DNA of 63,117 bases, filler included, from Stramenopiles sp. TOSAG23-3 (Eukaryota): assembly GCA_900128585.1 (NCBI GenBank). It is 12 parts of 12 records of this genome, joined end to end, with 100 filler letters (N's around TTAATTAATTAA, not from the genome) between each part and the next. Parts side by side here need not be neighbours in the genome. Positions count along the whole stretch, not along the records: positions 1 to 8,047 come from LT643073.1; positions 8,148 to 16,190 come from LT643074.1; positions 16,291 to 24,332 come from LT643075.1; positions 24,433 to 32,455 come from LT643076.1; positions 32,556 to 40,556 come from LT643077.1; positions 40,657 to 48,646 come from LT643078.1; positions 48,747 to 56,729 come from LT643079.1; 5 more parts are not named here. One strand, 5' to 3'. The position numbers and the translations under genes are program-made. Under the pieces are notes generated by a model. The model made no database searches. It was given only the letters and a program-made list of their open reading frames with translations, and had not been told where the DNA came from. Of this stretch, positions 2,421-49,949 are shown one piece after another (the stretch's first letter is position 1; each line of letters opens with the position of its first letter).

Positions 2421-2845
2421 CAAGAAAATTGGCTGTTATTTAATATTTAAGTAATTAAATTTAGCTTCGTCGTACCCTAATCCTAACCTGGTTCTGTAAT
2501 TTCGTCTCATTGATGGTTGTCAATCATCATTTTTTTTTATAGTGGAGACCATGAACTATCCGGAGCGATAACTGAATTGGCATTGCTTGCAGATGAACCG
2601 TAATCAACTTCCTCATCCGATATCTCCCTCAGAGATAAATCAACCCTTATACCATCTTCCAAGCAGCGGCTTAATTGTTTTAGAGGTGCTCGTTGTCTGA
2701 CTTGGAAATCGGTCAAGGGGTTTTTATCTGTGGGTTGAGATGTCGGGGGAGGGTCGTTTGCGTTTTAAAGTACATGCTCAAAATGAATAGGAGATTATGA
2801 CGAAACTAAATTTAATTACTTAAATAACAGCCAATTTTCTTGTTT
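2421..2845. mobile_element. MITE-like element, copy 1 (family A), with terminal inverted repeats
   Basis: Left end CAAGAAAATTGGCTGTTATTT...AAGTAATTAAATTTAGCTTCGTCGTA (from 2421) mirrors right end TATGACGAAACTAAATTTAATTACTTAAATAACAGCCAATTTTCTTGTTT (about 2797-2845); the interior recurs at 33183-33310 and 45125-45300. Confidence 0.65.
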
Positions 2846-2894
2846 AATGAATAGGAGATAAATTTTATTAAATAACAGCCAATTTTTCTTGTTT

Positions 2895-3794
2895 TTACTC
2901 GAGCTGGTATAGCCCTTTTTCATACTCCACCAACGTGGATTTCACGCGCTCTAAGCTCCCCACGATGTCCTGCCTGGTTTCGCCGTCTAGCTGGCCACCA
3001 ATAGATGGCCGGTCTCCAAAGACTTTGTAGTACAGCATCAAAGCGCCCAGCCAGTATAGGTAATTCTTGTACGTCCAATTGGACAAAACAGGACGGTCCC
3101 CCCTGGTATAGATGGAGTCCATTGACTTGATCTGGTTCTTTATCGTTTTGTAGTCGGGTGCGTGGGCCTCACCGTGCTTCCAATGCCACATCACAAACCC
3201 CCACATAACGGTGAACCATATATTCTCTCCGAACCTGCGTCCCTCATACGTATTCTGTACAAAGGGAATCCGCTTGTTCCTTACTAGGTATATGCAGACA
3301 GCGTACATGCACCTGATACCTATCCCCATGTTCATTTGGGTTTTCAACGAGTCCGTTTGACCGGGCCGCGCCCGCCCCCTTCGTACGTTTACCGGGAAAA
3401 CGTCATAGTTGAACACTAAGTTTGACGCGATCATGCCAGCAATGAATGTGTGCCACTCTTTCGGTTCTTTCGTCAGGGGGGCGCCAGACACCAACGAACC
3501 AAATCTTCCCAGTCCCTTTTCGGACAACTTGTACAAAACGCAGATTCGAGCTAGGATCCAACCGTGATCCCAGACTTGAGGGATCAAAAAAGTCAGGTTG
3601 CTCGACAACGACCTCGGCTGACTGGTTGCGTCCATAAACAAGTACTCACGAAACAGTGACGTGATCATGTAAGGGACACGCGTTGCGACCCCAAAAAAAA
3701 TCCCCTCTCTCAAACCTCGCAAAAGTTCCCCGACGAGACCGTCATTACCTACAAGCGGTAGGGCCGATACCACACTATGAACAAACGAATTCAT
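2895..3794 (-). CDS. PXMP4: Peroxisomal membrane protein 4 (PXMP4/PMP24, Tim17 superfamily)-like
   Basis: LRGLREGIFFGVATRVPY, HGWILARICVLYK, HTFIAGMIA, QMNMGIGIRCMYA, VMWGFVMW, KSMDSIY run colinear with PXMP4 motifs (KGFRNGAVYGAKIRAPH ... VVWGLVLWLF ... SSMTYLY). Confidence 0.75.
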   Translation of the reverse strand: MNSFVHSVVSALPLVGNDGLVGELLRGLREGIFFGVATRVPYMITSLFREYLFMDATSQPRSLSSNLTFLIPQVWDHGWILARICVLYKLSEKGLGRFGSLVSGAPLTKEPKEWHTFIAGMIASNLVFNYDVFPVNVRRGRARPGQTDSLKTQMNMGIGIRCMYAVCIYLVRNKRIPFVQNTYEGRRFGENIWFTVMWGFVMWHWKHGEAHAPDYKTIKNQIKSMDSIYTRGDRPVLSNWTYKNYLYWLGALMLYYKVFGDRPSIGGQLDGETRQDIVGSLERVKSTLVEYEKGLYQLE

Positions 3795-4819
3795 TGAATT
3801 CTACTGAAGGGGGGGGGGAGTGGCAAAAGGGACGGGAAGAAACTCTAACGAAAGGGGGTCCAAAAAAATCACACAACTAAAAGATAGATATATCTACACG
3901 GACGGGCAAAGTGTCCGCAACCAATTTCAATTTCAATTTTTTTGCTGTTGAGGCTTTGTAAGCACGTACTCCGGTTGGCCACAAACTTTTCCTTTTTTTT
4001 TCATCATCAGTACAAATTCAATAAAGTAAAAAAAAAGCTCAACAATTACTGTGTATTATATTTTTATGTATTTTTTTTTTTACCGAAGAAGAAAAAAAAT
4101 ATAATAAATAAAATAAAAAAATATACGTAAAATAATAATCTTCTTCCATCATCGTCAAGCAGCTATTATCGGTATAATAAACAATATAATATAACGGCAG
4201 CAACTAAAACAGTTTTAAAAAAAGAAGAAGAAGAAGAAGAAGAACAACAAAAAAAGAAAAAAAAAATAATTTCAAATAATAAAATTAATAAATCTCTATT
4301 AAAAGACTCTTATAACTACATACGACTACGAACTGGTCAATTATTAATTACGAAGAGTACGTAGACTAAACTAAATAGACAACTACGAGGAGTCGTGTAT
4401 TTAAATTATTTAGCCACAACAGTCTACGAGGAGTACGAGCGATCATTCAACATCGTTTTTTTAATCCTGAATCCTGATGATGAAGCCTATTGTAAAAAAT
4501 ATATAAGTTAAAGTTGTATATAAAATAAGATAATAATAGTCTAATAATCTAAATAGAAATATATTGGATAATCTAAATAGAAATATATTGGATAATAATA
4601 TATAATTTAATAATACAGTAGGAACACAACGCGGAGGAGGGAGATGAAAATAAAATGAAAAAATGGGGGCGGAATTTGGATAGGATAGACTAGTTAATAC
4701 TACCAAGTACTAGTCTACGATGAGTTGTAATTAATAATAATACCGGTTACGGGCTGGGCAACAATACACAAAAGACACTACATCAACACAGCATAAACAA
4801 ATATTTATGATGCATGGAT

Positions 4820-4990
4820 AGAAGAAGAAAGAAGAAGAAAAGAAAGAAGAAGAAGAAGAAGAAGAAGAAGAAGAAGAGAAGAAGAAAGAAGAAGAAGAAG
4901 AAGAAGAAGAAGAAGAAGAAGAAGAAGAAGAAGAAGAAGAAGAAGAAGAAAAAGCAAAGAAGAAGAAGAAGAAGAAGAAGAAGAAGAAGG
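4820..4990. repeat. (GAA)n microsatellite
   Basis: Long GAA run in a divergent intergenic region. Confidence 0.95.
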
Positions 4991-5317
4991 AACAATTTTT
5001 ATAGCTAATAATAATAAAATAAATAATTCAAAAAGAAGAGAAGAGAAGAAGAAAAAAAAAAGTAAAAAAATCAATTTTTGCACAGCGAGCAGTGGTAAAC
5101 AAAATTGAACGCACGCCGGTAGTTGCATTTAAATACGACACGGGACGATGGATATTCGGAGAAGAAATACAAAAGATTTCTACAAGAGATTTTATTACCT
5201 ACGAAGGGGAAACGTTGAGAAAACATTCTCAAGGTGTTATTTATTGGTTGATTTTTGAACAGGATAAGAAGAGGGCCGTCTGCGGACGACATAAAAAAAC
5301 CGTTCGAAAGTGGAAGT

Positions 5318-6441
5318 ATGAACAATCAGCTGTTGTCGTACGTTTTGCTTCTTTTAGCGAATGCATTCTTTGCGTTATGGGATATATTCGTAAGGGAAAT
5401 TTTCTCCCTGTCAAAGCATCCGTTCAATCCTTTGCTGTTTCTTATCCTAAGAACCGTTATTGTGGGGACAATAAACACTGCGAACGCCTATCGAAGGCAC
5501 GGGTTTCGGGTTGCAAAGGAAGAGCACGGACGGTTTAAGTTCGACGACCGCAGGTTCTTGGAGTGGGCTTTGTTTACACCTCGGCGGCGCCAGATGCTCG
5601 TCGTCACAACATCTTTGTGCGGCATATTTTTCACACAGACCGGGTACCTTTACGGAGTAAAGTTTACCTCTGCGACCCATGGCGCCGTGCTTCAACCTAG
5701 TATCGCCGTGGTTGCGATGGTTCTCGCGGTATTCCTGGGTGCGGAGACATTGGGAAGCGGGGAAGAGAAAAAGAATAAGCTTATTGGCCTGGTTCTGTCT
5801 GTTGGGGGGGCGGTAGTGATTGTTTTGGGAAGTGGTCATCACACGCCCTCCAAGGGAGCGTTGCACGTGCCAAAGGCTTACCCAATAATGGGCACGTCGT
5901 TCCTGTTGATTGAAGTTGTCGCCATGGCGTTCTTTTACATACTGTTGCCTGTCCTTAGCAGGTTCTACCACTCGGAATGGGTCACTGCATGGTTGTTTTG
6001 GGCCGCGCTCCCCTGTTACATTTTTATATTTGTCTTGCTCCTGGAGATTGAGCCAATAAATTCAAACCAATTCATTTTCGATCGATTATTGTGTTTTATT
6101 ACAATTCGATCGTATTTAGTAGCCAGCACATCAGCGGCAGCATGGCCTCCCTGTTCGCATGCTCGCACCCAGTTGTGACTGCATTCCTATCGGTCCTGAT
6201 TCTAGGGAGGCCTGCGACGATGTTTGATGCTTGCGGTGGGGTGTTGATTTGCATTGGGTTTTATCAGAGCATTAAGCTGAAGTTGAAAGCAGAATCGAAA
6301 AAGTTCAAGGGGGGGGACGCTTCCAAGAACCAGTTTAAACCGTTTCGCGACCAAGATAGCGATGACGAAATCGGAGAGCTCGGCGATAGCAGCAGCGACG
6401 ATCAACGCTATTCCAGCAGCGATGACAGCTATGGGCTATGA
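5318..6441 (+). CDS. EamA/DMT (WAT1-like) transporter, split by a frame change at about 6060-6120
   Basis: ORF 5318-6178 has GYLYGVKFTSATHGAVLQPSIAVVAMVLAVFLGAE and KLIGLVLSVGGAVVI; ORF 6091-6441 supplies the end of the second EamA repeat (ISGSMASLFACSHPVVTAFLSVLILG...GGVLICIG). Confidence 0.75.
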
Positions 6442-6554
6442 CGATTGAGCCGCGGGTTCCAGTTTAGATTTGGCTGTTACGTTTACTAATTAAGAGATTA
6501 AAAAATATTTAAATCAGTATATTACTGAATTAACTGAGAATTAGTTTTTTGAAA

Positions 6555-8021
6555 TCAGTATATGGAATAGCGCCTGGGGTTGTGTGGGTGGCTCTGCTCT
6601 TCAGAGTCCATCAAAAATCCGGATGGTTCGTTGCTTTCACGTTCTGGTTCTACCTTTAGGGTCTGATCCTTCTGGTTCGTTGGACGGTGCTGTTGGCCCT
6701 TCCGGGGATTTGAGGTGGAAGAAGCGAGAACAGAATCCAACATCTCCCACTGTTGTTGCAAAATGGCAATATCGTTTTGCATTTCATCGAGATTTTCATT
6801 GCCCCTTGCCTGGGTGCGCCCACGTTTGATTTGACAATCGATCCAGCTCATCATCATCAAACAACGATCGGTCACCTGGTCTGCAAATCGAGATCGCTCC
6901 GCGCTCATGGTTGCAAGTTTCCCTGACCGTGTCCCTGACATGCGCGGGGTAGGGTCAAAGTCGGATAATTTTTCCAAAATTATAGCCAACGCTGGAAGGG
7001 CATGTGCATTGGCCAACAACCTTTTGTGGCCTTTTTCTCTGCCCATCAAGTCGGAGATTTTATTGATAGCCTTTGAAATACGATAGATAACTGACTTTGT
7101 AAATTCATGGTCAACCTTACCCGAAACGCCTTGAAATCCACCGTGGTTGGACTTCTCCATGGAGTCGCTCAGACGATCCCACATTTCATTGATTTCGTTG
7201 TTTTTTTTCAAGTGTTCGAGGCTTGGAATTTCAATGGCCATGCCTTCCCCTCCATTGTTGTCCTCGGTCCTGCGCATACCCCTTTTTCGGCTGTTTCTCA
7301 CGCTATTCGGGCTGCCACCCGTTGGTTTTCGCTCACGCTCTCCCTTAGTAGAAGGCACTGTCATTGGTAGTCGTCCACCTCCCAGTCCCAAAATATCCCG
7401 TAAACGCGTGGTGCCGTTCCTCTCCAGCTCCAGCTTCAGAGAAATCAGCTCTACTTTGTTCTTGCTGCTGGGGAACTTTTTCAGTATTTTGAACAAGTCC
7501 TGTTCCCGCTTCGCGCTCTCGTCTAGAATGTTCTGGACGTCCGAGATTGTCATTTTCGCTCGTCTGGGGTCATGGCCCATCATGCTTTCCACAAAACTGT
7601 CCATCGATCCCATCAAGTTTGTCTTTTCCTGTTGCTCAAAATGGTACTGCCGCAACATGTCCCCTTCCATAACGTTGAAATCGCCATCTGCCTTCTTTGC
7701 AGAGCGAAGCCTTGATCTATGCTTTTGCTCGGCAACGTAGCCTCTATTCGAAGCAGCAGTCGCCGACGGTAGTCCGCCGATAACTTGCTGAACGGCTGTC
7801 TTTTCGCCACTCGGTACCAATGCTATCTCTTGGTGCGGCGGCAGTGGCGCTGTCCTTTTCACAAACTTTCCCGTAACCTCTCCGCTCTTTATGTACGCAG
7901 CAAGGGGTTCTTCACTTGCCATGAAGCTGGTCGCTCTTTCCTTGGACGGCGGTTTCGCTGGTGGAGGGGGCGGGGGGACTCCAGGCTCCTCCAAGTCTAA
8001 ATTCCGTAAAAGTTTTACCAT
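6555..8021 (-). CDS. Uncharacterised protein (Pro-rich N-terminus, coiled-coil/helical C-terminal half)
   Basis: 488-aa ORF with ATG and coding-like composition; no family recognised. Confidence 0.7.
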   Translation of the reverse strand: MVKLLRNLDLEEPGVPPPPPPAKPPSKERATSFMASEEPLAAYIKSGEVTGKFVKRTAPLPPHQEIALVPSGEKTAVQQVIGGLPSATAASNRGYVAEQKHRSRLRSAKKADGDFNVMEGDMLRQYHFEQQEKTNLMGSMDSFVESMMGHDPRRAKMTISDVQNILDESAKREQDLFKILKKFPSSKNKVELISLKLELERNGTTRLRDILGLGGGRLPMTVPSTKGERERKPTGGSPNSVRNSRKRGMRRTEDNNGGEGMAIEIPSLEHLKKNNEINEMWDRLSDSMEKSNHGGFQGVSGKVDHEFTKSVIYRISKAINKISDLMGREKGHKRLLANAHALPALAIILEKLSDFDPTPRMSGTRSGKLATMSAERSRFADQVTDRCLMMMSWIDCQIKRGRTQARGNENLDEMQNDIAILQQQWEMLDSVLASSTSNPRKGQQHRPTNQKDQTLKVEPERESNEPSGFLMDSEEQSHPHNPRRYSIY

Positions 8022-8047
8022 GGCAGCAGTTTTTGACTTTCGCCGCT

Positions 8048-8147
8048 NNNNNNNNNNNNNNNNNNNNNNNNNNNNNNNNNNNNNNNNNNNNTTAATTAAT
8101 TAANNNNNNNNNNNNNNNNNNNNNNNNNNNNNNNNNNNNNNNNNNNN
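8048..8147. other. Artificial contig spacer (N44-TTAATTAATTAA-N44)
   Basis: Same 100-nt six-frame-stop linker at 8048, 16191, 24333, 32456, 40557, 48647, 56730, 58009, 59287, 60564 and 61841. Confidence 0.99.
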
Positions 8148-9518
8148 AAGGAAGAAGGATACGAAGTAACACTTAAAGGATTTGGCAATGCAATTACGTA
8201 CCGCCGAAAGGACAAAATTGTCGCCCTCGATGGCCAATGGAAAAAGTTTGAACGTTGGCGTTCAGAGCGGAAAAAAATGGAGGAAAAGCGGAAGGAAACA
8301 AGCGATAAAAATAAAATAAAACAGATCGAAAAAGATATCGCCGCCATCCAGGCGCACCCAAAAGCTGTTCTTAAGGACTCGTTGAAACGGTTTGAAGCAC
8401 TGAAAGAAGAAGGGCTGCTGCAGATGATGGCCCCAGAGATTTTAATGTGCAGTCAAGTATACACGGAAATGTGCGAGGCCTGGAGCTTAGGCTCTGTTCT
8501 GTTCTTTATTTTTTCGCGGGGCAAAATGTTTGCTTCCGGCTCTGAAAAGAAAGAGGGCCAAGCCATTGATGACTATCGCCGAGAGTTGCTAAAGACAATA
8601 TTTGGGAGGTGTAGCCGAGCTCACATCCCGAAACAGATACGTAGCTACCCCGGGCGTCTAAACATTTCCGAGAAAAAAGAAGAAGACGGGAAGTACAAAC
8701 AAAAAATGGTCAGCTGGTTGAAAAAACGGGCCTTGGAAGATGATGACGAAAGCGTATTGGAAAAGATTGCGGGGTCCATAAACCAATTGCTTCAAATTCA
8801 TCCACGGAACCGTCTTTCTTTGCGCCAATTTCTCAAAGACGACCCGACGTTCGGCATGGCCGATTTTTCGGCGCCCAAGACGGTGGGAAAGAGTGCGAGA
8901 AAGAGCCCACGCAAGACTCCGGCAGGAACGGACACAACCCAAAAGCGAAAACTGGAGGGCGGGGGCAGTGCGTCGGCTGCCAAAAAGTCACGCGTAGAGG
9001 GTCCCGTCGATTCCCCGTCTGCACCAGGCAACCATGGTGGGTACTCGGCGCCAGCGCAAAGCTACGGTGGATATTCTGCACCGCCAGCCCGTTTTGACAA
9101 TTCCACCCCTGCGGCCCAGCGATGGTCAGATGCTGGTCCTGATGCTAGACAGGAAGGAGAAGTGGCCGAGCCACGATGGAAGGAGACGCGGGAAAGTGAA
9201 AGTCGGCGCTGGTCGGAGAACAAAGACGATAGCCGCAAAGACAACTGGAACAACTCTCCACGAGCCAACCATCAAAACCAGTGGGGGGATGCGGCCGACA
9301 ACCGCACACCCAGGCGTTGGGAAGATGAGGATACGCGCACTGGTGAGCGCAGCGGACGGCGCGATAGCCGGGAATCCGGAGGCGATAGGCGACAGAGCTG
9401 GGGAAGGAACGGAGGCAACAGACGTCAGAGCTGGGGTGACGGCGGCGGCAACAGGCGGCAAAGCTGGGGAGACGACAACCCTGACCGAAACCGTACCCCC
9501 AAAAGGTGGGAAGAGTGA
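8148..9518 (+). CDS. CMGC (CDK/MAPK)-like protein kinase C-lobe, 5'-truncated, probable pseudokinase, with disordered repeat tail
   Basis: Frame open from contig start: EVTLKGFGNA (DFG position), MMAPEILMCSQVYTEMCEAWSLGSVLF, INQLLQIHPRNRLS. Confidence 0.75.
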   Translation, partial: KEEGYEVTLKGFGNAITYRRKDKIVALDGQWKKFERWRSERKKMEEKRKETSDKNKIKQIEKDIAAIQAHPKAVLKDSLKRFEALKEEGLLQMMAPEILMCSQVYTEMCEAWSLGSVLFFIFSRGKMFASGSEKKEGQAIDDYRRELLKTIFGRCSRAHIPKQIRSYPGRLNISEKKEEDGKYKQKMVSWLKKRALEDDDESVLEKIAGSINQLLQIHPRNRLSLRQFLKDDPTFGMADFSAPKTVGKSARKSPRKTPAGTDTTQKRKLEGGGSASAAKKSRVEGPVDSPSAPGNHGGYSAPAQSYGGYSAPPARFDNSTPAAQRWSDAGPDARQEGEVAEPRWKETRESESRRWSENKDDSRKDNWNNSPRANHQNQWGDAADNRTPRRWEDEDTRTGERSGRRDSRESGGDRRQSWGRNGGNRRQSWGDGGGNRRQSWGDDNPDRNRTPKRWEE

Positions 9519-9785
9519 GCTACACGAAGCGTAAGCTTGCAAAATTCAGCGTGAATAATTCATTAAGAGCTTATATTATACTTAGTACGAATTTTTTTAA
9601 AAATGCTTTTATCTTTTTATTTAATAATTACTTATTTTTACATAGAGAAGTTCGCCCGCTTAATATTTGTACTGTTCTTACTTGTCGGCGATTGTATTAT
9701 ATTTCCCCCTAAACACTGGGTACTTCGAATATCATTACAGATTTACGCTTCAAGTTAATTTGTTTTAAAAATCCTCTTACCATAT

Positions 9786-10679
9786 TTAAAATGTGTCCTT
9801 CGCTTGTCGCAGCCTTGACATTACTGCGTCCTTCGGGGCGTCGAGGCTAAGTCCTAGTTTTGTGCGAATGATGTCTTCTTCTAGTCGCAAAAAAGGGTTG
9901 TACAGCAGTTCATCTTGCAGTGTGGTGGGAACCGTTGGTGCCCCATTTGCCCGTTGCTGCTGTACGTCATCGATCTTTTTCAAAAGTGCTCGGTTCCGCG
10001 GCTCCATCGTCAAGGCAAATGCCAAGTTACTCTCAGTATACTCATGCCCTACAAATATTTTCGAATCGAGAGGAACGGCATTTACAATAGTCTCAAGTGA
10101 TTTAACCATATCGTCCCCGGTTCCCTCAAAAAATCTCCCCGCCCCACCCACAAACAGGGTATCTCCAGGAAACAATAGATTTTCCTTTTCAAAATAGAAC
10201 GAGACATGCCCTGCCGTGTGGCAAGGAGTATCCAAAACTAGTATCTTATGTGGCCCAATAGCAATGCAGTCACCACCGCGCACGATGTCCGTCAAGCCCG
10301 GGAGAGGATCGTCGCCATCTACGGGCCCATAAATTTTGCAACCCTCTATCCTTGATTTGACATCCAAGTTACCACCTATGTGATCCCAGTGTTTGTGCGT
10401 TGATAAAACTGCGTCGAGTGTAAGGCCGAGCCTTTTCGCTTCACGCAGAACCGGTTCTGCTTCACCAACGTCGATCGCTAGACAACTTTTTGCGTCTTCA
10501 TTTATCACCAAGTAGGAGTAGTTATCTTCCAACACAGGAACGATCACAACGTTACCCGAAGCACAAACCGTTGTTGAAAATTTTAAGCACGCCGATGTTG
10601 CCCCGACAAGGCGCCTTTTGGTAGCCGCGAGAAACAGCGTTCGTGGAAGACTGCCGCGACGACGAGTCAGGAACGACAT
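9786..10679 (-). CDS. HAGH: Hydroxyacylglutathione hydrolase (glyoxalase II), probably mitochondrial
   Basis: LEDNYSYLV, THKHWDHIGGN, TPCHTAGHV, FPGDTLFVGGAGRFFEG, GHEYT, PTTLQDELLYNPFLR; likely start MSFLTRRR (ATG 10679) is Arg/Ser-rich like a transit peptide. Confidence 0.95.
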   Translation of the reverse strand: MSFLTRRRGSLPRTLFLAATKRRLVGATSACLKFSTTVCASGNVVIVPVLEDNYSYLVINEDAKSCLAIDVGEAEPVLREAKRLGLTLDAVLSTHKHWDHIGGNLDVKSRIEGCKIYGPVDGDDPLPGLTDIVRGGDCIAIGPHKILVLDTPCHTAGHVSFYFEKENLLFPGDTLFVGGAGRFFEGTGDDMVKSLETIVNAVPLDSKIFVGHEYTESNLAFALTMEPRNRALLKKIDDVQQQRANGAPTVPTTLQDELLYNPFLRLEEDIIRTKLGLSLDAPKDAVMSRLRQAKDTF

Positions 10680-24332: not shown

Positions 24333-25020
24333 NNNNNNNNNNNNNNNNNNNNNNNNNNNNNNNNNNNNNNNNNNNNTTAATTAATTAANNNNNNNNNNNN
24401 NNNNNNNNNNNNNNNNNNNNNNNNNNNNNNNNATAAAAACAAGAAAATTGGCTGTTTATTTAAAGTAAATATTAATAGAGAAATAAATATAATAATGTAC
24501 AGTGTCAGTAAAAATTTATTCCCTATATTTATTTTATAATTTAAAACTAATTTTATTTGTCTAAATCCACACTGAATTAAACAAATTTGATATATTGGTC
24601 GACAGGTTCGGTAACCCTAACCCTTCCTCCAAAAAGAACAAACAAATTAGTACTACAAAGATGCAGGAACAAGGAATGAAAGATTTTAAGGATTGGAAGA
24701 TCGTAACAAAGTGTTTATGGAAAGAAATGAGGGAACCGTTAGAGGCACGGACGACTAATAATAATATAATAATTATTAGAACGACTATTATAATAACACC
24801 CTCTTCATACAGACACCTTGGCTTCTTGTTAAGAATAAAATTTAAATTATTATGAGTGAATCGCAAACAGTGAATATATTTCCGAAAAAAATTATGATCA
24901 AGTGCGGTTTACATTAAAGGATTTATAGCTCACTACTTCTTTTGATGAATTCAAAAATATATATTTCGTACTGAATTGGACCGTGTACGTAAGGCACTTT
25001 CCCTGCAACAGCGGGTGAAG

Positions 25021-29461: not shown

Positions 29462-29727
29462 GATGTGTGCCCCCTTTCAAAAATTGGTTCTCGTGAGGGA
29501 GTAATCATTTTTTTTACGTGAATATTATTTAGAGAGAGAATTAAAACAAGAAAATTAGAGCTGTTATTTTTAAGTAGTATAATTAAAATTAATGTACTGC
29601 GAACTGATCTTTACTGTTGTGACTTTATCTCACTTAAAAGTTAATTAAAATAATTATCTTCCTCATGTACCGCGAAAATGTTTTAAAATCTGCTTTAAAT
29701 CTAATCCAATTACTATTTTTATTTCGC

Positions 29728-32823: not shown

Positions 32824-33494
32824 AAAACAAGAAAATTGGTGGCTGTAGTATATATTTTTAAGTAATTAAATTTAGCTTCCTCCTACCCTAATCCTAACTT
32901 GGTTCTTTAATTAGTCAAATAAATTATAATAATAATAACTGCTTTGAAAATCTCACAGGGAATGAGTCATCTATGAATGGGACACCGGGCCAATTTTCTT
33001 GTTTTTATGTCATAACTAATATATAATAAAATAATAATAATACGGTTAAACCCTACTAACTTTGTCTCTAATTTCACATATATATATTGATTGACACAGG
33101 GAATCAGAGCGTTGCCAGCAGGACGAGATCCCGACGGGCACGCCAACGAACCTCGTCTACCGCACCGCTGATCGAAATTGACACAAACGACCCTCCCCCG
33201 ACATCTCAACTCAGGCAGACAACGAGCACCTCAAAAACAATTAAACCGCTGCTTGGAAGATGGTACAAGGATTGAGTTATCTCTGAGTGAGTGAGATATC
33301 GGATGAGGCCGTTAATGGACAAATGGAATAAAATCGTTCATTGGAAATTATATCATCCCCTCGGTGATTGACAACCAACAACGAATCAAAATTACAGAAT
33401 CAAGTTAGGATTAGGGTATGAGGAAGCTAAAATTATACTTAATATATAAATAATAAAAAATAATAATAACAGAGCCAATAATTTTCTTGTTTTT
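32824..33494. mobile_element. MITE-like element, copy 2 (family A), inverted relative to copy 1
   Basis: Left AAAACAAGAAAATTGG...TTTAGCTTCCTCCTACCCTAATCCTAACTTGGTTCT, right GTTAGGATTAGGGTATGAGGAAGCTAAA...GCCAATAATTTTCTTGTTTT; 33183-33310 is the reverse complement of about 2610-2760 with a deletion. Confidence 0.65.
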
Positions 33495-33567
33495 AATATA
33501 TTGATTTTCAAGAGAAGAAGAAGATCACGGTTGGCAATTTATTTACACATTAATAAGACTATAAAAT

Positions 33568-38463: not shown

Positions 38464-39708
38464 ATTGATTTGCCCACCAAGAGAAGTCTGGATCTTATTA
38501 ATGGCTGTTATTTGCTACATAGTAGTAGTTTCCGCAGTGAATCGGAACATGGTAAGGAAGAAGACCACGAGAGTGTTGGAGTTGAGAAGTAAGTGTAAGA
38601 GGCTTTTACACAATAAATAACAGCCAATTTTCTTGTGTACTTTAAAAGGTTTCTATCATAATTCAATTTGTAGATTAGTCAAAATCATAAAACACTTATC
38701 TCAAATGTTCTTAATTGACATCATGTTAGCGCTTCGGTGTCAACGTGCGATTAGTCAAGCATTCTAACAAGCTTCTTCACGCACGGTCGAAAAGTCTGCA
38801 CAGTTTCGTCGAAGCAAAGTCAAGAGCGCCCAGAACGATTCAAGCCGTTCTCTCTAAATTTATTGGGTTTTCAAAAGTGGTCAAAAATGCGGAGGACGAA
38901 TAACTTCTCCTTCACTCCAACAATTGTCGGTTTTCAAATGATGTAGCAGTAAGGGGGTAATTCTGCATAATGCTAGTCATCCCACTCGACCCACCGGGTC
39001 AAAATGATGACAAGAAAGAAGACACAAAAACAAAACGATGCCCAGCCAATGAAACAGTTGCACACATTCCACCCTGCACACGTGTAGTTGCAATCCCCAT
39101 CCCCGTCCCCTTCTAAATGTGAGCTAGCAACCATATTATCCTGCTCACACGACGGGATTCGCACAGAGCCCGAACGGTTGCACAAACCACTGTTTTATCC
39201 AAAAACTATTACCGTAAGTTTCACGAATTCTATAAAAACAGAACGTTCTGTTTACGTACACAATCTACCGTTTCATTCATTTAAACCAAAAGGTTAAATT
39301 TTCCTTTTTGATCTTTCAATTCCTATATTATATATTATTATACGACATATTTTTTATAGTACCAGTAGTAGTAGAATAGAGAATCGTTGAATTACTACAT
39401 CATCATTATTAACCCCACCCGCGAACGGTGAATGATTATTTATAGTATTATTATTCATACTTTTATATACACAATAATGCTATAGCAATGTATAATAAAA
39501 TTAATATATAACGGTTGTTTCAGTAAAAAGAGCAAGAAAGAAAAGAAAGAAAGAAGGAAAGAAACAAAAAGCCGATGTTATTAAATACAACGTGACAACG
39601 TGTAATAATATAATATGATCTGATGCACACTTTATGATTATAAAATAATAATTTTAAATCACAATAAAATATAATAATTGTTGTTACAAAAACAAATGAT
39701 GAAGGAAG

Positions 39709-40556: not shown

Positions 40557-40656
40557 NNNNNNNNNNNNNNNNNNNNNNNNNNNNNNNNNNNNNNNNNNNN
40601 TTAATTAATTAANNNNNNNNNNNNNNNNNNNNNNNNNNNNNNNNNNNNNNNNNNNN

Positions 40657-40930
40657 AAGAAGAAGAAGAAGAAGAAGAAGAAGAAGAAGAAGAAGAAGAA
40701 GAAGAAGAAGAAAGAAGAAGAAGAAGAAAGAAGAAAAAGAAAGAAGAAGAAGAAAGAAGAAAAAGAAAGAAGAGAGAAGAAAAAGAAAGAAGAAAGAAGA
40801 AAAAGAAAGAAGAAAGAAGAAGAAAAAGAAGAAGAAAGAAGAAAGAAGAAAGAAGAAAAAGAAAGAAGAAAGAAGAAAAAGAAAGAAGAAAGAAGAAAAA
40901 GAAAGAAGAAAGAAGAAGAAAAAGAAAGAA
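40657..40930. repeat. Pure purine (GAA/GAAA) low-complexity tract
   Basis: About 270 nt of A/G only. Confidence 0.95.
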
Positions 40931-41195
40931 GATCGATCATCATCATCATCTCCTCCCATTTTTTTTAAATAAAATAATAATAATAACGTCCCTCTCCCCC
41001 ACTTTAGAAACAAAGGAAACAGCTGACGCACGGATAAGGTTTGAATTGAGTAGGAGTTTTACTTTGAAAGGCATTGACATTTATACTTCGCACAGATTCC
41101 TGAAGTGCACCTTCATTCTTTGTTCTGTGGATATCCTTCGCTTTGGTTTGTACTCGACACGGACCCACCCGCGCACAACTACCACCACCACCACC

Positions 41196-42245
41196 ATGGC
41201 TCCCAAGACTGGCAATGTCGATATGGACGCGTTTACTGGCAACCACGGCCTGGAGACACCCAGCAACGAGAACGATTTCATATGGTCGTTAAAGGAAGAG
41301 CCGCATTACTCTAGGAGGCTGGCTATTAAGAAGAAACACCCGGAGATCAATAAATTGTTCGGCCACGAGCCCCTCACGAAGTGGATTGTACTAGGTGTCA
41401 TGACCCTTCAGCTGGGCACGGCGTACTACTGCAGGAACAACACCTGGTCCCTTGAGTTCTGGGTGCTGGCCTACGTCGTCGGCGCGACGTGCACCCAAAA
41501 CCTTTTCTTGGCAATACACGAATGCAGCCACCAGCTATTGTTCAAAAAGAGGGTCCACAACGAACTGTTCGGCATGATTATGAACCTTCCGATCGGGCTT
41601 CCCTACTCGACCAAGTTCAAGGGGTACCATATCGAGCACCACAAACTGCAGGGCGTAGACGGGATCGACACCGACGTCCCGACGAAGCTCGAGCTCATGC
41701 TTTTTTCTAACGTGCTAGGAAAGCTGTTCTTCTGCACCACGCAGATCCTGTTCTACGCCTGTAGGCCGATGGCCGTCCGGCACCAAGTCTTTGACAACAA
41801 GACGTTGCTGAACTTTGTCATCCAGTTCACGTTCAACTTTCTTGTATGGTACAAATTCGGGTTCGGGCCAATCATCTACCTGTTCGCCAGTGGCTTCCTG
41901 GCCGGGTCGCTGCACCCTGTAGCCTCCCACTTCATCGCCGAGCACTACGTTTTCGTTGGCGAGGCGGAAACGTACAGCTACTACGGGCCTTTGAACATCT
42001 TCTGCTACAACGTTGGATACCACAACGAGCACCACGACTTCCCAAACATCCCATGGAGCCGGTTGCCCCAATTGCGAGAGATTGCCTCCGAGTTTTACGA
42101 CAACCTTCCATACCACAAAAGCTGGCCAAGGGTGCTGTGGAAATTCATCTTCGACGCCCGCATCGGTTCAAAGAACCGTGTAAAAAGAGCTGACACGGAC
42201 AATCTGGCCACCACCACCATTTGCGGTGAGAAAAAAATAAGGTAG
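41196..42245 (+). CDS. DEGS1: Sphingolipid delta-4 desaturase (DES1/DEGS)
   Basis: DFIWSLKEEPHYSRR, LAIHECSH, YHIEHH, GSLHPVASHFIAEHY, ETYSYYGPLN, NVGYHNEHHDFP. Confidence 0.97.
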   Translation: MAPKTGNVDMDAFTGNHGLETPSNENDFIWSLKEEPHYSRRLAIKKKHPEINKLFGHEPLTKWIVLGVMTLQLGTAYYCRNNTWSLEFWVLAYVVGATCTQNLFLAIHECSHQLLFKKRVHNELFGMIMNLPIGLPYSTKFKGYHIEHHKLQGVDGIDTDVPTKLELMLFSNVLGKLFFCTTQILFYACRPMAVRHQVFDNKTLLNFVIQFTFNFLVWYKFGFGPIIYLFASGFLAGSLHPVASHFIAEHYVFVGEAETYSYYGPLNIFCYNVGYHNEHHDFPNIPWSRLPQLREIASEFYDNLPYHKSWPRVLWKFIFDARIGSKNRVKRADTDNLATTTICGEKKIR

Positions 42246-42772
42246 GAAGTTTCCACACCGGTGTGAAATGATAATACAAAATATATCTTTAACTTTATAA
42301 CAGCCAATTTTTTGTTTTAACATACTAAGTAGATCTTTCAAAAAAATAGGCCAAAAAAATAAAATGATGTACAATAATATTTATATATTTTTAAAAAACT
42401 AAAAAAAAATGAAAATATTTATGCATTTGTTGATGCTGTGTTGATATAATAATATTAATATTATATAATAATAATATAACACTATAAATAATAATAATTG
42501 TTTTCTTATAAAAAAAAAGTTTAATTATTATTATTATAACAACATAGAACTACAACTACAAACGAATAATAACACAGGTTTTTTAAAAAATATGGTTGCT
42601 TCGTATGATTTGACAAATGTCCCATCGGAGAGAGGAGGCTTCTACTTTTTTTTTTCATAATATGTTTGTAAAACGTGTGTGTGTGGATGTGTGTGTGGGA
42701 TTGAAATAAGGAATGCCTTCTTCTTCTCTCTCGTTTCATCCTGTTTGTTTAAAATAGCATTGACGTCCACCC

Positions 42773-44802
42773 ATGCCTTCGTATTTATCGATCTTTCTGT
42801 TTGGGTGTGACTGGAGCGGCAATGGTGGTAGCCGTCGTCGTAAGAAACCTTCCGTGTGCAACCGTTTTGTGCACGCAGCAGGGGGCATTTTTTTTGCGGC
42901 GGTGCTGCTTTGTTACACTCTCTCGTTCGGGGTGTCTATTCAAGTAGTCGACCGAAAGGAAACAAAAGAGGCCATGCTGTTCTTGCTGGTTAGACGCAGG
43001 GTACTCGATGCACTATGCTCAGCAAACGTTTTGATATCTGGGATTTTGATCGTTGTCCTACTAAGTGTGCTTTTCTTCGGGACATTTTTAGAGGAAGATC
43101 ACCCAAAAGGAAGCCGTGAGCTTAGGTGGAAGTTCGGGTACCAAATACTTATCTCCACTCTGACGCAGGGGGGAAAAGAGGTGGCGGGGGGGGGGGCAAG
43201 GACACGAACAAAGAAACGGAAGAGAACCAAAACACGAACGGAACGACAGGTGGAGAGGGAATCCCACAAAAAAAAAAAGAAGAAGAAGAAAAGACATACC
43301 ACTGTATTGTTGGAAACGGGTCCAAGCAAGAAATTTTGGAACTTGATTCCCGAAATACCAAAGGTACCAAGGTGTATGGCATAAAGAAACTCTGCAAGAG
43401 ACATGCACAATACACCAACACGTACGTTACCGAAAAGAGTACGCCGAAGGAGGAGGCAAATGAGCGCTTCAAACTGATGGCGGAATATATCGGAGGACGT
43501 CTTCATTGCTGTAAATTCTATTACGAGCTCCATGCAAGTAAACTGAAACAATTGCGATACTACCTTTCCAACATCGAATTGTGGGTGTTCTTTGCCCTTT
43601 GCTTCACGTCATTAATGGTGTTTATTCACTCTGTTCTAGCACTGGGGACGATGTCCTACACAAATGCTATGACAGACTACGTGGAACGTAATTGGGAGAA
43701 CCCAAAGGTGCACTACCAAAAACAATACTTTGAGGAGGTAGGGAAAAACCTATCTGCAGGCGAAGCGATTCCTATGCTACGGGGCGCGATGGCAAATGTT
43801 TCGCAGTTCTATACAGTCAGCATGGCCCTGTTCAGTTTTGCCACGTTCAACGTTTACAAGTACTTTCAAAAGGAGAATGGTTTCCTGGGGGGCTTCATAC
43901 TTAATATGGCATTCTTGATCTTGGTACAAGGCTGGTGTTTGGGTTCGGCGGCGTACGTGAGTGGAGAACGCGACGGCAGTGGGCACATTATTTCGGAGCT
44001 TCTGATCGCAGGCTTTTGTGGATTTGTCCCTGGCCTGGCATTCCATTGCATCAAAGTGTATCAGCACAAGGGCCCGTGCGCTACGGTCTGGGACTACCTG
44101 TACCCGTCACTAAGTCTCTTTATCGTGGCCGTTGGGTTATTCAATTTAGCGAACGAAGGGCCTGCTGGGTTGAGCCTGGCGTGTTCGATGTACGCTATCT
44201 TTCCTGCAATACATCTGGTAAACTATGCTGTGCCAAAGATCCTTGACCTAAAATGTTGCGGTAGCAAAGAGTACACCGCGCAAGAAAAATCCAAGGCGCT
44301 CTTCGCCGTCATTGGCACTGGCTATTTAGTTGCTCTTATTTGCTTTGCCGTTCTAATCGCATCGAGACGCAAGCTGCAGTATGTGTCGCCGTTTATGATA
44401 CTCTTAGGGTGCTCGTTCGTGCTTCTTGCAATCATCGTTTTTAAAAGGGTCGAGAGCGCTACCTTAACGCAGGCGGACACCCGAGCGATTGCGTGGGGGG
44501 TTACCTTGCTTTCCCGGTTTGCACTCGGTATGAGCGTTGTCATGACGTTGTTTTTCCAATACTGTCGCACTTCGGTCCAGTACCAGGTTGAAGGGATCTC
44601 CGAGGTGGCTTACGCAAAGCTAGTCAGAGATACTAAGTGGGTCTATCGAGCAAAGGAAGACTTCGAGCATGCCTTAAAAAGCGATTTCGACTTCTTTTTC
44701 TGGTTGAGTTTGGAAAGCTGTGTATTGATCCTCTGTGCTGGCGTTACGTCTTTGCATTGGAGGGACTCCGTACAAGATATCACAATGTACGAAGGTTTGT
44801 AG
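42773..44802 (+). CDS. Multi-pass membrane protein of unknown family, split by a -1 frame change at about 43168-43196
   Basis: ORF 42773-43384 gives two TMs then degenerates into K/R-rich sequence; ORF 43126-44802 gives about 11 TMs; overlap contains G6A4 and G11 runs. Confidence 0.65.
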
Positions 44803-44949
44803 GACGCAGCAGAGAAAGATGAAAAGTCGATTTTCAAAAAAGCGAAAAGTGTTCTTCTTAACACAGAAGGGATTAGGGACCGACGTAAAGTTTTGTTTAA
44901 TTAGTTGTATCATATGATAAGATTCCGTAAATTTAACTTCTCGTTAAAT

Positions 44950-45300
44950 TAAGTTTAGGATTAGGGTATGAGGACGCTAAATTTAATTACTTAAATTAAC
45001 AGCCAATTTCCTTGTTTTTAATTAAGTTTAAAAACAAAAAATTGGCTCTCTGTTATTTCGTAAAATTAAAAACAAAGAATTGGCATGTTATATTTTTTAA
45101 AGAGTGCATTACGCACACCTACTTAAACGACCCTCCTTCGACACCTCAATTCACAAATGACAATTCCTTGACTGGTTTACAAGACAGAGAACGAGCACCT
45201 TTGAAACATTCACGCCGCTGCTCTTGGAAAACTGCACAAGGAATGATTCATCTACGAGTGAGACATTGGATGAGGAAGTTGACCATGGGTCTTTTGGCGT
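44950..45300. mobile_element. Family A termini plus diverged internal copy 3
   Basis: TTAGGATTAGGGTATGAGGACGCTAAATTTAATTACTTAAATTAACAGCCAATTTCCTTGTTTT (about 44955-45019), two forward termini near 45030 and 45069, internal homology at 45125-45300. Confidence 0.6.
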
Positions 45301-45442
45301 CGATGCAATTCCACACACTGATTTGGATCATGCATGGAGTACACTCTGTATGAATGATAGCCAAGACTAAGTGACAAGGGTATATTGATTACTAAAATCA
45401 CAGCAGTAGAGATAAGTTCGCAGTACATCATCTTCCAAAATT

Positions 45443-46381
45443 TTAAGCCATGTTCAGAATTTCGCGAGCATGGTTGTGTTTTGGACAAACCAACCGGGTT
45501 TGCTTATCCCTCGACGAAAAAAGTCGACCAAGAAATTCATGGCGAGGCACAGCTCGTCCCCCTAACTTGGTTTTGTATTCCATGGTCATGCCAAGATCCC
45601 AGAAATCAAAATTACTAGCCTTCAACAGTTTAGGGATGCAACAGCACTGGATGGTGCCCGCAGAATCCTTGTTTGAAAAGCCTGACAAACTTGTGTAGAC
45701 ACCGCCACAAGCATAACCAATTTCCCCTGCAACCACATCGTCGCCAAACCACACCTCTACGGAATGCATCGAGACCCCGTTTACCCCGTTAGGAGAACGA
45801 AATATATTCTTGTAAGCCTTGATTAACGCGGGGTAGAACCAGCAATGGTCTCCGTGCTGCTCGCAGCACATTTTTATACAGTAATCGAAGCATTCGTCGA
45901 CGGAAACCCGAAACCTACTACTTCTCTTCTTGACAGATTTTGGGACGTGCAAATCGCTAAAGTCCATAATGCAACGCTTTTTATGGAGTTTCGGCGCCAA
46001 GACCGCGTAATCAGAAAACGCTTGTATGCACATTGGCAAAAAACCGTGGCGGGCAAGGTTTGCTACAAGTTGGGTGTCGAAAGAAACGGACCATGTGAAA
46101 TCCTCTTTCATCTCTCTCACACTCTCGAGCAGCTTCGGAACGTCCTCGCAACTCTTCACGTAACGGAGGCGTCGAAAATACTTACTACTTTTCTTCAGTT
46201 GCATTGCAACTCCGAGTTCTTGTTCCATGCTGCAGCCGGTAAAGTCCTGGAACGTTGCGTAGTCGCCCCTAAACTCGTGCGGTGCCAACTCCCTTCGATA
46301 ATCCATCGTTGAGCCAGCCGTTGCATTTTCGCCGGTGGTATCGACCGCCATATCTTCCCCTGCCGTGTTGAAACTTGCCAT
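45443..46381 (-). CDS. Leucyl/phenylalanyl-tRNA-protein transferase (Aat/LFTR)-family protein
   Basis: GFLPM, PKLHKKRC, LHVPKSVKK, HGDHCWFYP, MHSVEVW..VVAGEIG..GGVYTSLSGF, FWDLGMTMEYK. Confidence 0.88.
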   Translation of the reverse strand: MASFNTAGEDMAVDTTGENATAGSTMDYRRELAPHEFRGDYATFQDFTGCSMEQELGVAMQLKKSSKYFRRLRYVKSCEDVPKLLESVREMKEDFTWSVSFDTQLVANLARHGFLPMCIQAFSDYAVLAPKLHKKRCIMDFSDLHVPKSVKKRSSRFRVSVDECFDYCIKMCCEQHGDHCWFYPALIKAYKNIFRSPNGVNGVSMHSVEVWFGDDVVAGEIGYACGGVYTSLSGFSNKDSAGTIQCCCIPKLLKASNFDFWDLGMTMEYKTKLGGRAVPRHEFLGRLFSSRDKQTRLVCPKHNHAREILNMA

Positions 46382-47028
46382 TTCAAGGTATATCCAAAGC
46401 TCCAGGTGGAATGGGGAAAGAGGTGTCAGTGAAATACTGGAAGAAAAAAATACCGCGGAAGAACAGTTAGTCGTGTTTTTAACCAATAATATTAATTAAA
46501 AGAACGGGTAAATGAAGGAACAGGAAGATTGATTATTTTTTTTGTTTCTTGCTCTTGTTTTATAAACACACATTTGCATATATTTTATTTAAATGCATCT
46601 ATCTCTGCTCTTCTGTGTGTACATTTTGTTTTTTTAATAATAATAATAATAAAATATTTTTTTATTATTATTTATTTATAATTATACCTCCTCCTCCTCC
46701 TCCTACTTCCTCTGATAATAATAATAATAATATAGCAGAGGAGCAGCAGAGGAGGAGGAGGAGGAGGAAGAAAAGAAGGAGAGAATCATCCGTCCAACAA
46801 CCGCCGCCCTACGCCCTCCACGACGACGCCCGGTTGTTTGGAAAAAAAAAGGAAGAAAGGAAAGAGGAACGAAAGAGAAGGGGGAAAGATTGAAAATATT
46901 TCTGTATTGTTGATATTCTACCACGGAAAGAAGAATAGAGGAAGAAAAGAAAGGACTTTTAATTAATACAAAAGTAAGGGTAGATGGAAGGAATGTAGGG
47001 TTGGCCTTGGAGTTTTAAGGTTGAACCG

Positions 47029-48342
47029 ATGAGCGTTTGCGTTTACTTTTACTTGCCCCACAAAACAAAATCTGACCTATCCAGCAGAACGGTGCTTTTA
47101 GAAACGCTGACTGGCGATGATTTCGGGTTCCAAGTAATTGAGAATGTTCATCGTTCTGACGGCGAGGGGCAGGGTGGGAATCTTCCAGAAACACTGTTGG
47201 TATGGACCTCGACTTTTCCTTCTTCGTCCTTCTTCAAAAGCCTGCTTCCACCAGCTCTCAAGGGCACAAAGATCGTGATAAATCACTTTCCAAGGTCCGT
47301 GGAATGTGGCCACAAAAGTCGCCTCTACCATAATTTGGACGGAAAGGATTTTTTGCCACGGTCTTTTGCGGCATCGTCCGTGAGAATCCAAGAGAAAGGA
47401 AGGAAGGATGCAAAGCGGCAGAAAGTCGCGAAAGAGCACGAGTCCAGCAACATGTCCGTTGAAGGGTTGCGTGGCCGCTTGAAGCGCTTGTCTAGTGAAG
47501 GAGATGCAACGCATTGGATCACAAAGCCGCAACGGGGTGGTGGTGGACGGCGCATTCAAATTTTCGAAACAGAATTTCTTTTAAACGAGCTGGGAAATGC
47601 CGGCTCCGGTGTCGGCCTGCTGCCGTTCAAGTGCCCCTGTGTTTTTCAAAAGTACGTTCCAAACCCATTTTTAATTGAAGGCAGAAAGGTTGATTTGCGA
47701 GCCTACGTTTTGGTTTTGCAAGGGACACAAAGCCAGCACGGCGGTATTTATGCTTACCGCGAGGGCTTAGTCAGGTTTGCCAGTAAAAAGTTTACCATGA
47801 GCCCTGTGGATTTAAACGATCCGTACGTTCATGTTACAAACAATTCTGTAAATAAGCGAAATTCCGTAAACCATGGGGCGACGGAGAACATGCTGTTCTC
47901 CGAAACCTTCCAAGACAATGGCGTCTGGGAACGTTCCCTCTTTCCACAACTCAAGCGCATAGCATTCTGCACTTTTACGGATGCGCTCCTTGAACACGAG
48001 AATGTCAAGAGAGGAGTACGCGCGTGCTATGGGCCATATTCTGCGGGGAGGAACTTGTCAAATTTTGAACTGTTTGGGGTAGATTTATTGCTCGACCAAG
48101 ATATGAAGTTGCACCTACTAGAAGTCAATCATATGCCGGAATTGGAGACCTCGGCAAAGGCCTATGCAGATACGAAAATGAACCCAAAACTAGTAAAAGA
48201 CATGTTCCACCTGGTCTGCTGCAATGGATCCAGCCTAGATTCAAAGAAGGAAATGTCTTTGTTTGTTTTATGCGGAAATGATTGCATTGCTAGAAAAGAA
48301 AAGAAGAAGGAAGAGATAAAAAACAAAGATAAACAGAGATAA
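47029..48342 (+). CDS. Tubulin-tyrosine ligase-like (TTLL) family protein
   Basis: INHFP, WITKP...GGRRIQIF, VFQKYVPNPFLIEGRKVDLRAYVLV, GLVRFA, HVTNNSVNK, FELFGVDLLLD, LLEVNHMP. Confidence 0.93.
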   Translation: MSVCVYFYLPHKTKSDLSSRTVLLETLTGDDFGFQVIENVHRSDGEGQGGNLPETLLVWTSTFPSSSFFKSLLPPALKGTKIVINHFPRSVECGHKSRLYHNLDGKDFLPRSFAASSVRIQEKGRKDAKRQKVAKEHESSNMSVEGLRGRLKRLSSEGDATHWITKPQRGGGGRRIQIFETEFLLNELGNAGSGVGLLPFKCPCVFQKYVPNPFLIEGRKVDLRAYVLVLQGTQSQHGGIYAYREGLVRFASKKFTMSPVDLNDPYVHVTNNSVNKRNSVNHGATENMLFSETFQDNGVWERSLFPQLKRIAFCTFTDALLEHENVKRGVRACYGPYSAGRNLSNFELFGVDLLLDQDMKLHLLEVNHMPELETSAKAYADTKMNPKLVKDMFHLVCCNGSSLDSKKEMSLFVLCGNDCIARKEKKKEEIKNKDKQR

Positions 48343-48746
48343 GTTCGCAGTACATGAAGGAACGTAAACCTTTGATGGACAAAAGGAGCAGATTCACTTT
48401 CGCGGTAATTATGAAGAAGATAATAACAATAATATATGTTTTATTAAGAAGATAAAAAACATTTTTTTTAATATAAAAAACAAATTATATATAGTTAAAA
48501 AATATAATATATATATTATATAAAACAAGAAAAATTGGCTGTTATTTTTTAATAGTAAAATTAAAATTTAAAGAAAAAAAGAAGGTGTCAGTTCAAGAAC
48601 AATGTCTCCTCCTATTGCAGATCCTCCCCAAGTTCTGGTCAAGATTNNNNNNNNNNNNNNNNNNNNNNNNNNNNNNNNNNNNNNNNNNNNTTAATTAATT
48701 AANNNNNNNNNNNNNNNNNNNNNNNNNNNNNNNNNNNNNNNNNNNN

Positions 48747-49556
48747 GGCTGGCAAACAATAGTGTATTACTTGGCAATTTTTGTCATGGAATGGTTGGCA
48801 ATGTTATGTGCCGATTTAATTGATGTGGCACAAATTACAACGGCGACTCCAGGAGCACTGAGGGCGGAGCACTCAAGAAAGTTTGACGATTTTCAATTCT
48901 ATCGGTTGTCCACTCGCGTCATGTTTTACTTTTCATGCGTACGACGGGCATTTTACATACCCTTGTTTTGTCAAATTGCAAATTGGGAAGAATGGGTCGC
49001 GATGACTCTTGTAAGCATGGTGGCATGTTTTTCATTACAGGTGCTTGTCCGTTCTCAGTCGTATTACGATTATATGAAATGGTACACGTTCAAATGCTGG
49101 CCAGATTGGGAGTACCGATCAAAAGACACTTGCTTGGATCAGTCGTGCCTGTACAACGGTTTCGACTTTATAAACCTCTGTACTTGTCTGTTTCAGTTTC
49201 TGGTAGTGTGGGCACTGACAGACGAACACAACATGCAGTCATTCAGTTACTTGAGGGAATCCTCTTCTGAAACAGTTGTGTATGTTATCGTGTGGGCATC
49301 GTTTCAAATGCTCTACTGCGCTATGGTTTCGTTTTACGAATGGAAAGTTCACTCCAAGGAAGGAAACGAACGCCTCGCCGGAAAACTGCTGGAAAAGGTG
49401 TACTCGACGGGAGATTCATTGGTGTTTTCAATGGTGATTATTGGTATCAATGTTACGCAGAACCCATATTTTGCCTTCTCTTTGAACAATTTAAGCGAAG
49501 TTCCATGCACGGACTTGTATAAAAACGAATCTATCGTAAACGTTACGGCATCGTGA
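48747..49556 (+). CDS. Multi-pass membrane protein, 5'-truncated
   Basis: Open frame from contig start with several hydrophobic segments; family not recognised. Confidence 0.65.
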   Translation, partial: GWQTIVYYLAIFVMEWLAMLCADLIDVAQITTATPGALRAEHSRKFDDFQFYRLSTRVMFYFSCVRRAFYIPLFCQIANWEEWVAMTLVSMVACFSLQVLVRSQSYYDYMKWYTFKCWPDWEYRSKDTCLDQSCLYNGFDFINLCTCLFQFLVVWALTDEHNMQSFSYLRESSSETVVYVIVWASFQMLYCAMVSFYEWKVHSKEGNERLAGKLLEKVYSTGDSLVFSMVIIGINVTQNPYFAFSLNNLSEVPCTDLYKNESIVNVTAS

Positions 49557-49949
49557 GTAAATTGCAGACGACTTCAAATCGTAAAGAAGAGTTGCACAAT
49601 TTCTAGATCTTAAATTTGACTTTCGCAGGGTATATGAAGAAGATGAACTAATATAAACGCCGAATAATTTTAAAAACACAAATAATTAATATTTTATTTT
49701 ATTAAATAATTAAAACCCTAATCCTAACGTGGTTTTGTAATTACATGCAATATGCAATATGCAATGTGTGATGAAAAATAAATTATATTATGGTATGCAG
49801 ATAAGCAGATAATTACTCTCCTGTAAGAAAAAACCAATTATATATAAGAGATAACCACAATTTAAAAAAATTAGCGTCCTGACATTGCTGTATATTCAGG
49901 GCACTGAGGGAGGTAAAAGTGTTGCGCGCGAGCGTGCTCGATTAAAATT

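Follow-up and report, generated by a model that had tools for sequence, protein, structure and literature searches.

Within the available part of the literature (PMC5006619), position-specific retrotransposons of compact genomes are known mainly near tRNA genes. The family described here resembles one of them, TRE3 of Dictyostelium, a non-LTR element that, in a compact genome, lies some 100 bp downstream from genes; however, TRE3 lies behind tRNA (Pol III) genes, whereas the present family lies behind protein-coding genes and carries a predicted restriction-like endonuclease (RLE; for TRE3, sections of PMC5006619). It also recalls EhLINE1/EhSINE1 of Entamoeba histolytica, which, in the available passages of PMC1635306 and PMC2996970, have a T-rich 3’ tail for which pairing with an A-rich target is proposed, are intergenic and gene-proximal, make target-site duplications (TSDs) and have no strict target. 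Those passages mention no confinement to the 3’ side, and, unlike EhSINE1, the short copies here are truncated LINE ends and not a separate SINE. SIDER1/2 of Leishmania likewise comprise thousands of degenerate retroposon pieces, nearly all at gene 3’ regions, but the accessible part of PMC2323293 describes them as extinct and with a shown role in mRNA decay, whereas the present copies still have exact TSDs, and nothing in them points to orientation-specific selection.

In predicted architecture the closest described systems are the RLE non-LTR retrotransposons, with the clades CRE, R2, R4, NeSL and HERO (PMC4640811, in part). Shared with these are an apparently single ORF (here tiled) with reverse transcriptase (RT), CCHC knuckle and a C-terminal endonuclease of apparent R2 fold, as well as 5’ truncation and TSDs. 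Unlike R2 and its relatives as portrayed in the same sections of PMC4640811, the family has no sequence-specific multicopy target, with AT-richness alone at the presumed nick, and it forms thousands of dispersed stubs with a T-rich tail whose position is tied to gene 3’ ends. A literature search of incomplete coverage turned up neither a description of this family nor a report of any LINE confined to the 3’ ends of protein-coding genes. The family is real and undescribed, of a known element kind but in an unusually narrow niche.

The window, that is, the whole 63,117-nt stretch of DNA analysed, consists of 12 contigs joined by N-linkers, from a eukaryotic assembly of 28.4 Mb in 7,088 contigs. 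Its genes are dense and have few introns, and its DNA is also represented in marine RNA runs. A preliminary description had listed 21 sites of a short motif found almost only downstream of genes. The motif is a genuine repeat: its exact 20-mer core occurs 1,214 times genome-wide (621 + 593 on the two strands) versus 0 + 0 for a reversed control, and a 551,813-bp sample (contigs C1–C26, picked by number, plus the window) holds 79 matches at up to 4 edits versus 2 control matches. Extrapolation, by scaling the 79 matches or by their ratio to exact matches, suggests a genome-wide copy number of roughly 4,000–5,600. Twelve of the 21 sites (2421, 2822, 2870, 12528, 15862, 24436, 29543, 38615, 42297, 44996, 45069 and 48522) match a 23-nt core at up to 4 edits; three (32824, 33468 and 49713) are element DNA by BLAST, and two are partial tails, 45030 matching a 25-mer at 5 edits and 32988 having about 18 exact tail bases. 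The remaining four (6469, 15768, 20428 and 38502) are weak partial words of about 10–20 nt that the core search did not recover. The description’s wording that copies span all seven contigs was thus generous, since contig 3 has only the weak word at 20428 and contig 7 only an internal piece.

The motif, read as its reverse complement, is the T-rich 3’ terminus of a non-LTR retrotransposon. Copies share one constant end and run inward into several related subfamilies, ending at ragged points, with a median extent of 36 nt (range 22–433). In longer copies an ORF end can be read on the opposite strand from the motif, so the element RNA would finish with a U-rich tail and be truncated at its 5’ side. 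Of the 36 ORF-end loci with sufficient sequence, 24 have a sense tail no more than 520 nt away, and 6 have a copy in the opposite orientation. A CCCTAA-like word that had hinted at telomerase-like origins proved to lie inside the UTR of a single subfamily, and that reading was dropped.

Window copies illustrate this anatomy (strand denotes the inferred element RNA strand). At 2416..2763 (−) lies a 5’-truncated LINE copy of about 350 bp with ORF end, 3’ UTR and tail (motif at 2416–2441), 93% identical over 317 bp to locus L136 and 80% to L122. Behind it come a 50-bp stub at 2796..2845 (+), flanked by an exact 14-bp TSD (2782–2795/2846–2859), and a tail-only stub at 2868..2895 (+). The latter overlaps the stop codon of ORF 2895–3800(−), as described, but the name PXMP4 given to this gene rests on a below-cut-off Pfam match (Tim17/Pmp24, E 7e-4). 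A second cluster comprises an 88-bp stub at 32824..32911 (−) with an exact 15-bp TSD (32809–32823/32912–32926), an internal fragment (32939–32988) followed by a tail at 32939..33006 (+), and a 5’-truncated copy of about 400 bp at 33093..33500 (+) with Ser/Thr-rich ORF end, UTR and tail. A third holds a 62-bp stub at 44958..45019 (+) with an 11-bp TSD (44947–44957/45020–45030), two degenerate tail-only stubs at 45031..45093 (−), and an internal fragment at 45108..45428 (+) with ORF end and UTR but without tail (83% over 318 bp to L119).

Single stubs with core matches occupy a convergent gap at 12526..12572 (−), a contig start at 24435..24463 (−), the 3’ half of a tandem gap at 38606..38639 (+) and, tail only, the position behind a desaturase gene at 42295..42318 (+); a degenerate one, also with a core match, lies close to a contig end at 15833..15887 (+). 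The stub at 29543..29627 (−), in a convergent gap, belongs to a second 3’-UTR subfamily (83% to L122 and L176), and the copy at 48522..48646 (−), which reaches the contig end, to a third. A UTR fragment lies directly behind a TTL gene at 48334..48423 (+; 89% to L119), and an internal UTR fragment without motif lies at 49714..49742 (−).

TSDs were also evident beyond the three cases of 14, 15 and 11 bp in the window. From 115 sites, 12 lacked enough flank; at the remaining 103, a TSD of at least 11 bp was found in 21 (2.0% in shuffled pairs) and of at least 10 bp in 28 (3.4% in shuffled pairs), with lengths varying from 9 to 17 bp. A word of at least 10 bp just outside the constant end was repeated past the ragged end in 16/55 cases, as against 2/55 upstream. 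In their fixed 3’ end, their 5’ truncation and their TSDs of varying length, the copies agree with an RLE-type non-LTR retrotransposon. The flanks of all 115 sites are AT-rich, with a junction of T followed by A’s, and no further target consensus was found in them, nor any sequence-specific insertion site within multicopy genes or repeats of the sort that characterizes R2, CRE/SLACS and Utopia. As a separate matter, self-targeting into older copies was rejected: 11/72 outer flanks consist of element DNA, which is close to the masked fraction, although counts were overdispersed (variance 1.74, mean 0.81).

The earlier suggestion of solo transposon ends with a 3’ bias was right as to transposon origin and bias, but the copies are 5’-truncated LINE products, often with TSDs, and not solo ends of a DNA transposon. 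Solo ends or MITEs of a TIR DNA transposon would account for inserts such as those at L024 and C17, where the motif stands at both ends within one duplication. Most TSD-flanked inserts, however, have a single motif end and a ragged inner end; the TSD is not fixed (9–17 bp), two fixed inverted ends with a fixed-length TSD were not found, and the linked ORF encodes RT and endonuclease. Already largely refuted, a TIR origin is in our estimation extremely improbable.

To characterize the parent of the LINE copies, we walked by overlap from the tail inward, through the Ser/Thr-rich end, an endonuclease-like domain with CCHC knuckle and a thumb region into RT. The ORF was tiled across overlapping contigs of the genome (G000) at about 77–100% identity; no full-length copy was seen on any single contig. 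RT and endonuclease within one protein were seen only in a relative, the 1,087-aa metagenomic protein P0144, in which RT, thumb and C-terminal domain are joined (35–50% identity). The RT is of the non-LTR type: P0143 has RT motifs including FADD, 18/20 RT homologues carry PF00078, and a 22-row profile, mostly of homologues, gave its best matches to R2 proteins, spanning RT through C-terminus (E 8e-44). Pfam and PDB sequence searches with the element proteins themselves gave nothing useful, and Pfam RVT_1 misses the RT; a genome scan with RVT_1 returned 8 matches, to LTR-type and tyrosine-recombinase-type elements only. In a 42-row tree the RT family was split from APE-bearing LINEs (100/99) and sat among unlabelled rows, the tree having no labelled CRE reference; by its motifs, the RT may resemble the CRE clade.

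The C-terminal domain has a predicted fold with pLDDT 85.7. Its model aligned by VIA-align with the R2Tg endonuclease (9dou 1212–1390; Z 10.4, rmsd 3.0, 171 aligned) and with R2Bm (8ibw; Z 9.4), the following row scoring 7.0; Foldseek placed R2 chains at ranks 1–6, but with E only 0.04–0.29. The CCHC knuckle could be aligned, and the modelled domain has a restriction-like endonuclease fold. In the PD-(D/E)xK alignment the first Asp is kept (AD here, PD in P0144), as is K..KY, and an insertion shifts the second acidic residue out of register. As judged from sequence and this structural model, the parent of the motif is an R2-like LINE, a predicted RLE-type non-LTR retrotransposon.

For position relative to genes, we called coding segments in the 551,813-bp sample with a self-trained Markov model; they agree with the Pfam-supported ORFs of the window and make up about 70% of the sample. 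Dropped from the gap test were 21 short same-strand gaps (0 matches), 6 contig-edge matches and 1 exon match at 4 edits. The claimed near-exclusive 3’ and convergent placement was borne out: convergent gaps held 56 matches in 27/69 gaps (28.6 kb), tandem gaps 16 in 14/62 (48.2 kb) and divergent gaps 0 in 0/59 (67.0 kb; Fisher p by gap class, 3.7e-9 and 5.6e-5). About 20 of the 41 occupied gaps would be expected to be divergent (p 1e-12). Outside the window, by subtraction, the occupied gaps were 23/60, 12/58 and 0/51. Equal density in convergent and divergent gaps was thus not seen, length and AT content considered: AT content is alike across classes (0.67–0.68), and AT-rich proxy sites number 21.9/kb in divergent versus 17.8/kb in convergent gaps. 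Also as described, GAA microsatellites mark the divergent gaps (6.6/kb versus 0.07/kb in convergent gaps).

Element DNA makes up 17.1% of convergent, 3.0% of tandem and 0.5% of divergent gaps, the last confined to 3/59 gaps, in one of which it is a 257-bp copy of a sister family. The nearest stop lay at a median of 90 nt in convergent gaps and of 130 nt in tandem ones. Tandem gaps of at least 400 bp had 7 matches within 200 nt after the stop and 0 within 200 nt before the start, and the first listed copy lay in the 3’ half of 12/14 occupied tandem gaps (KS p 0.03). From the occupancy of single gene ends, 0.40 is predicted for convergent gaps (observed, 0.39); per-end occupancy is therefore equal in convergent and tandem gaps, and the unit is the gene 3’ end, not convergence. 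Long copies were assessed at 73 loci, chosen by similarity to inner element parts after hand removal of 19 overlapping ones: 20 were convergent, 2 in the 3’ half of tandem gaps and 31 had only a 3’ end nearby, while 4 had only a 5’ end nearby, 1 was divergent and 15 were unclassified. Nearly all truncated copies sit no more than some 200 bp past the end of a protein-coding gene.

Such a distribution could arise at insertion or afterwards. We think it likely that the R2-like LINE targets the transcription-termination zone of genes, the motif being its constant 3’ end on the opposite strand. Alternatively, the same LINE may insert in any AT-rich DNA, the 3’ bias being left by purifying selection against exonic and promoter insertions, an option that the available part of Mandal et al. 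also raises for EhLINE1/EhSINE1 (PMC1635306). Selection is probably strong, as the roughly 70% coding sample contains only 22 masked bp in its coding DNA, and since all copies are fixed in one assembly, selection has already acted on them; a target consensus of AT-richness only would likewise suit retention. On the other hand, divergent gaps are about 1.1 kb long and microsatellite-rich and accept palindromes of about 330 bp, yet received 0/72 gap matches, which are mostly stubs under 50 nt; moreover, the least diverged copies (0 edits, n = 15 in gaps) are equally biased. We regard retention as possible but rather unlikely.

The palindromes belong to an unrelated repeat of about 335 bp found in divergent gaps at C16 and C22. 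Of 11 more loci, 7 are on the 5’ side (1 divergent, 5 one-sided 5’, 1 tandem 5’-half), 4 on the 3’ side (2 tandem 3’-half, 2 one-sided 3’) and 0 convergent; the control is small, with 13 loci, 7 of them classified from one side only. The palindromic element may be sorted into the 5’ gaps of the genome that it shares with the LINE. That 5’ gaps take palindromic inserts bigger than most LINE stubs argues, indirectly, that absence of the LINE there is element-specific, and the palindromic repeat favours targeting over simple retention. Counting against targeting are the 3 divergent gaps with element DNA, the one divergent long-copy locus and the fixed state of all copies, neither de novo nor polymorphic insertions having been seen.

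For R2 and EhLINE1, the available sections of PMC4640811 and PMC1635306 describe a nick, pairing of tail with target, target-primed reverse transcription and a staggered second nick. The endonuclease of the present element would, by extension from R2/EhLINE biochemistry, nick AT-rich DNA; the freed A-rich 3’ end would pair with the U-rich RNA tail and prime reverse transcription; a second nick 9–17 nt away would yield the TSD, and early abortion of reverse transcription would leave stubs. Under targeting, Pol II termination might govern which sites are accessible, by way of a tethering factor or of open DNA, and exonic insertions would be removed by selection. TRE3 has an endonuclease of the APE type. 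The present element could be its Pol II counterpart, an RLE LINE that has traded sequence-specific for position-specific targeting of Pol II termination zones as a genome-wide safe haven, a proposition to which we give even chances. If targeting is true, it would reveal a novel mode of life for a LINE in a genome that is 70% coding, and it would provide an R2-type enzyme that naturally favours sites immediately beyond gene ends. If retention is true, the family would provide a clean measure of how much lower insertion tolerance is in 5’ than in 3’ gaps.

It had also been proposed that the motif is a co-opted terminator, poly(A) or 3’-UTR element used genome-wide and often in sense to the upstream gene. 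For co-option of the stubs in a SIDER-like manner speak their position, close to the nearest stop in convergent gaps, the occurrence of element sequence in RNA libraries and the Leishmania precedent (PMC2323293, available part). Yet the motif is missing from 90/131 gaps with a gene 3’ end (42/69 convergent, 48/62 tandem). Orientation is unbiased, 40/72 copies being in sense overall; with element DNA masked, the counts were 32/56 in convergent (p 0.35) and 8/16 in tandem gaps, and an orientation bias near stops seen in raw distances was gone. Divergence is the same in sense and antisense copies (mean, 1.875 edits in either group), and Rfam gave 0 matches in the window. In 4 runs, two RNA contigs for the upstream gene stop short of the copy at 2416, at 2324 and 2353, and an unlabelled run reaches 2402, a weak hint, as the ends differ and contigs do not map transcript ends. 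These 4 runs showed no empty-site allele either, which carries no weight in one direction or the other because contigs break at the repeat. Use as a genome-wide terminator or poly(A) element is therefore not supported, co-option at single loci is unsupported though conceivable, and on present evidence the motif is not supported as a new gene-regulatory signal; we consider co-option improbable.

Some LINE inserts carried a tail at each end, both enclosed by a single TSD (locus L024, 1484–1757; contig C17, 15756–15850), an arrangement which suggests that both nicks were used for priming. We also found copies of a sister LINE family (locus L174, 3424–3960; contigs C13, 1492–1703, and C21, 5806–5950), in which the UTR is related to that of the main LINE and the terminus is likewise T-rich but different in sequence. 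Convergent gaps held 9 of the 10 sister family ends, and one copy lay in a divergent gap.

A palindromic, MITE-like repeat of ~335 bp (contig C16 of the assembly, 9075–9410, locus L076, and ~20 other loci) had the opposite niche: whereas the LINE sits almost only behind gene ends, most sites of this repeat were divergent or 5′ gaps. GAA/GAAA microsatellites (window 4800–5000, 10950–11100, 14000–14250 and 40657–40940) were strongly enriched in divergent gaps (6.6 per kb versus 0.07 per kb in convergent gaps), where they are possibly promoter elements.

Eight retroelements with long open ORFs were present in the whole assembly. Judging by domain layout, we take three to be Gypsy-like (C2763, C2845, C4346), four DIRS-like (C4033, C3226, C4197, C2669) and one Ngaro-like (C3182). 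The window also encodes a Leu/Phe-tRNA-protein transferase (45446–46495, minus strand; PF03588, E = 3e-25), a family known mainly from bacteria.
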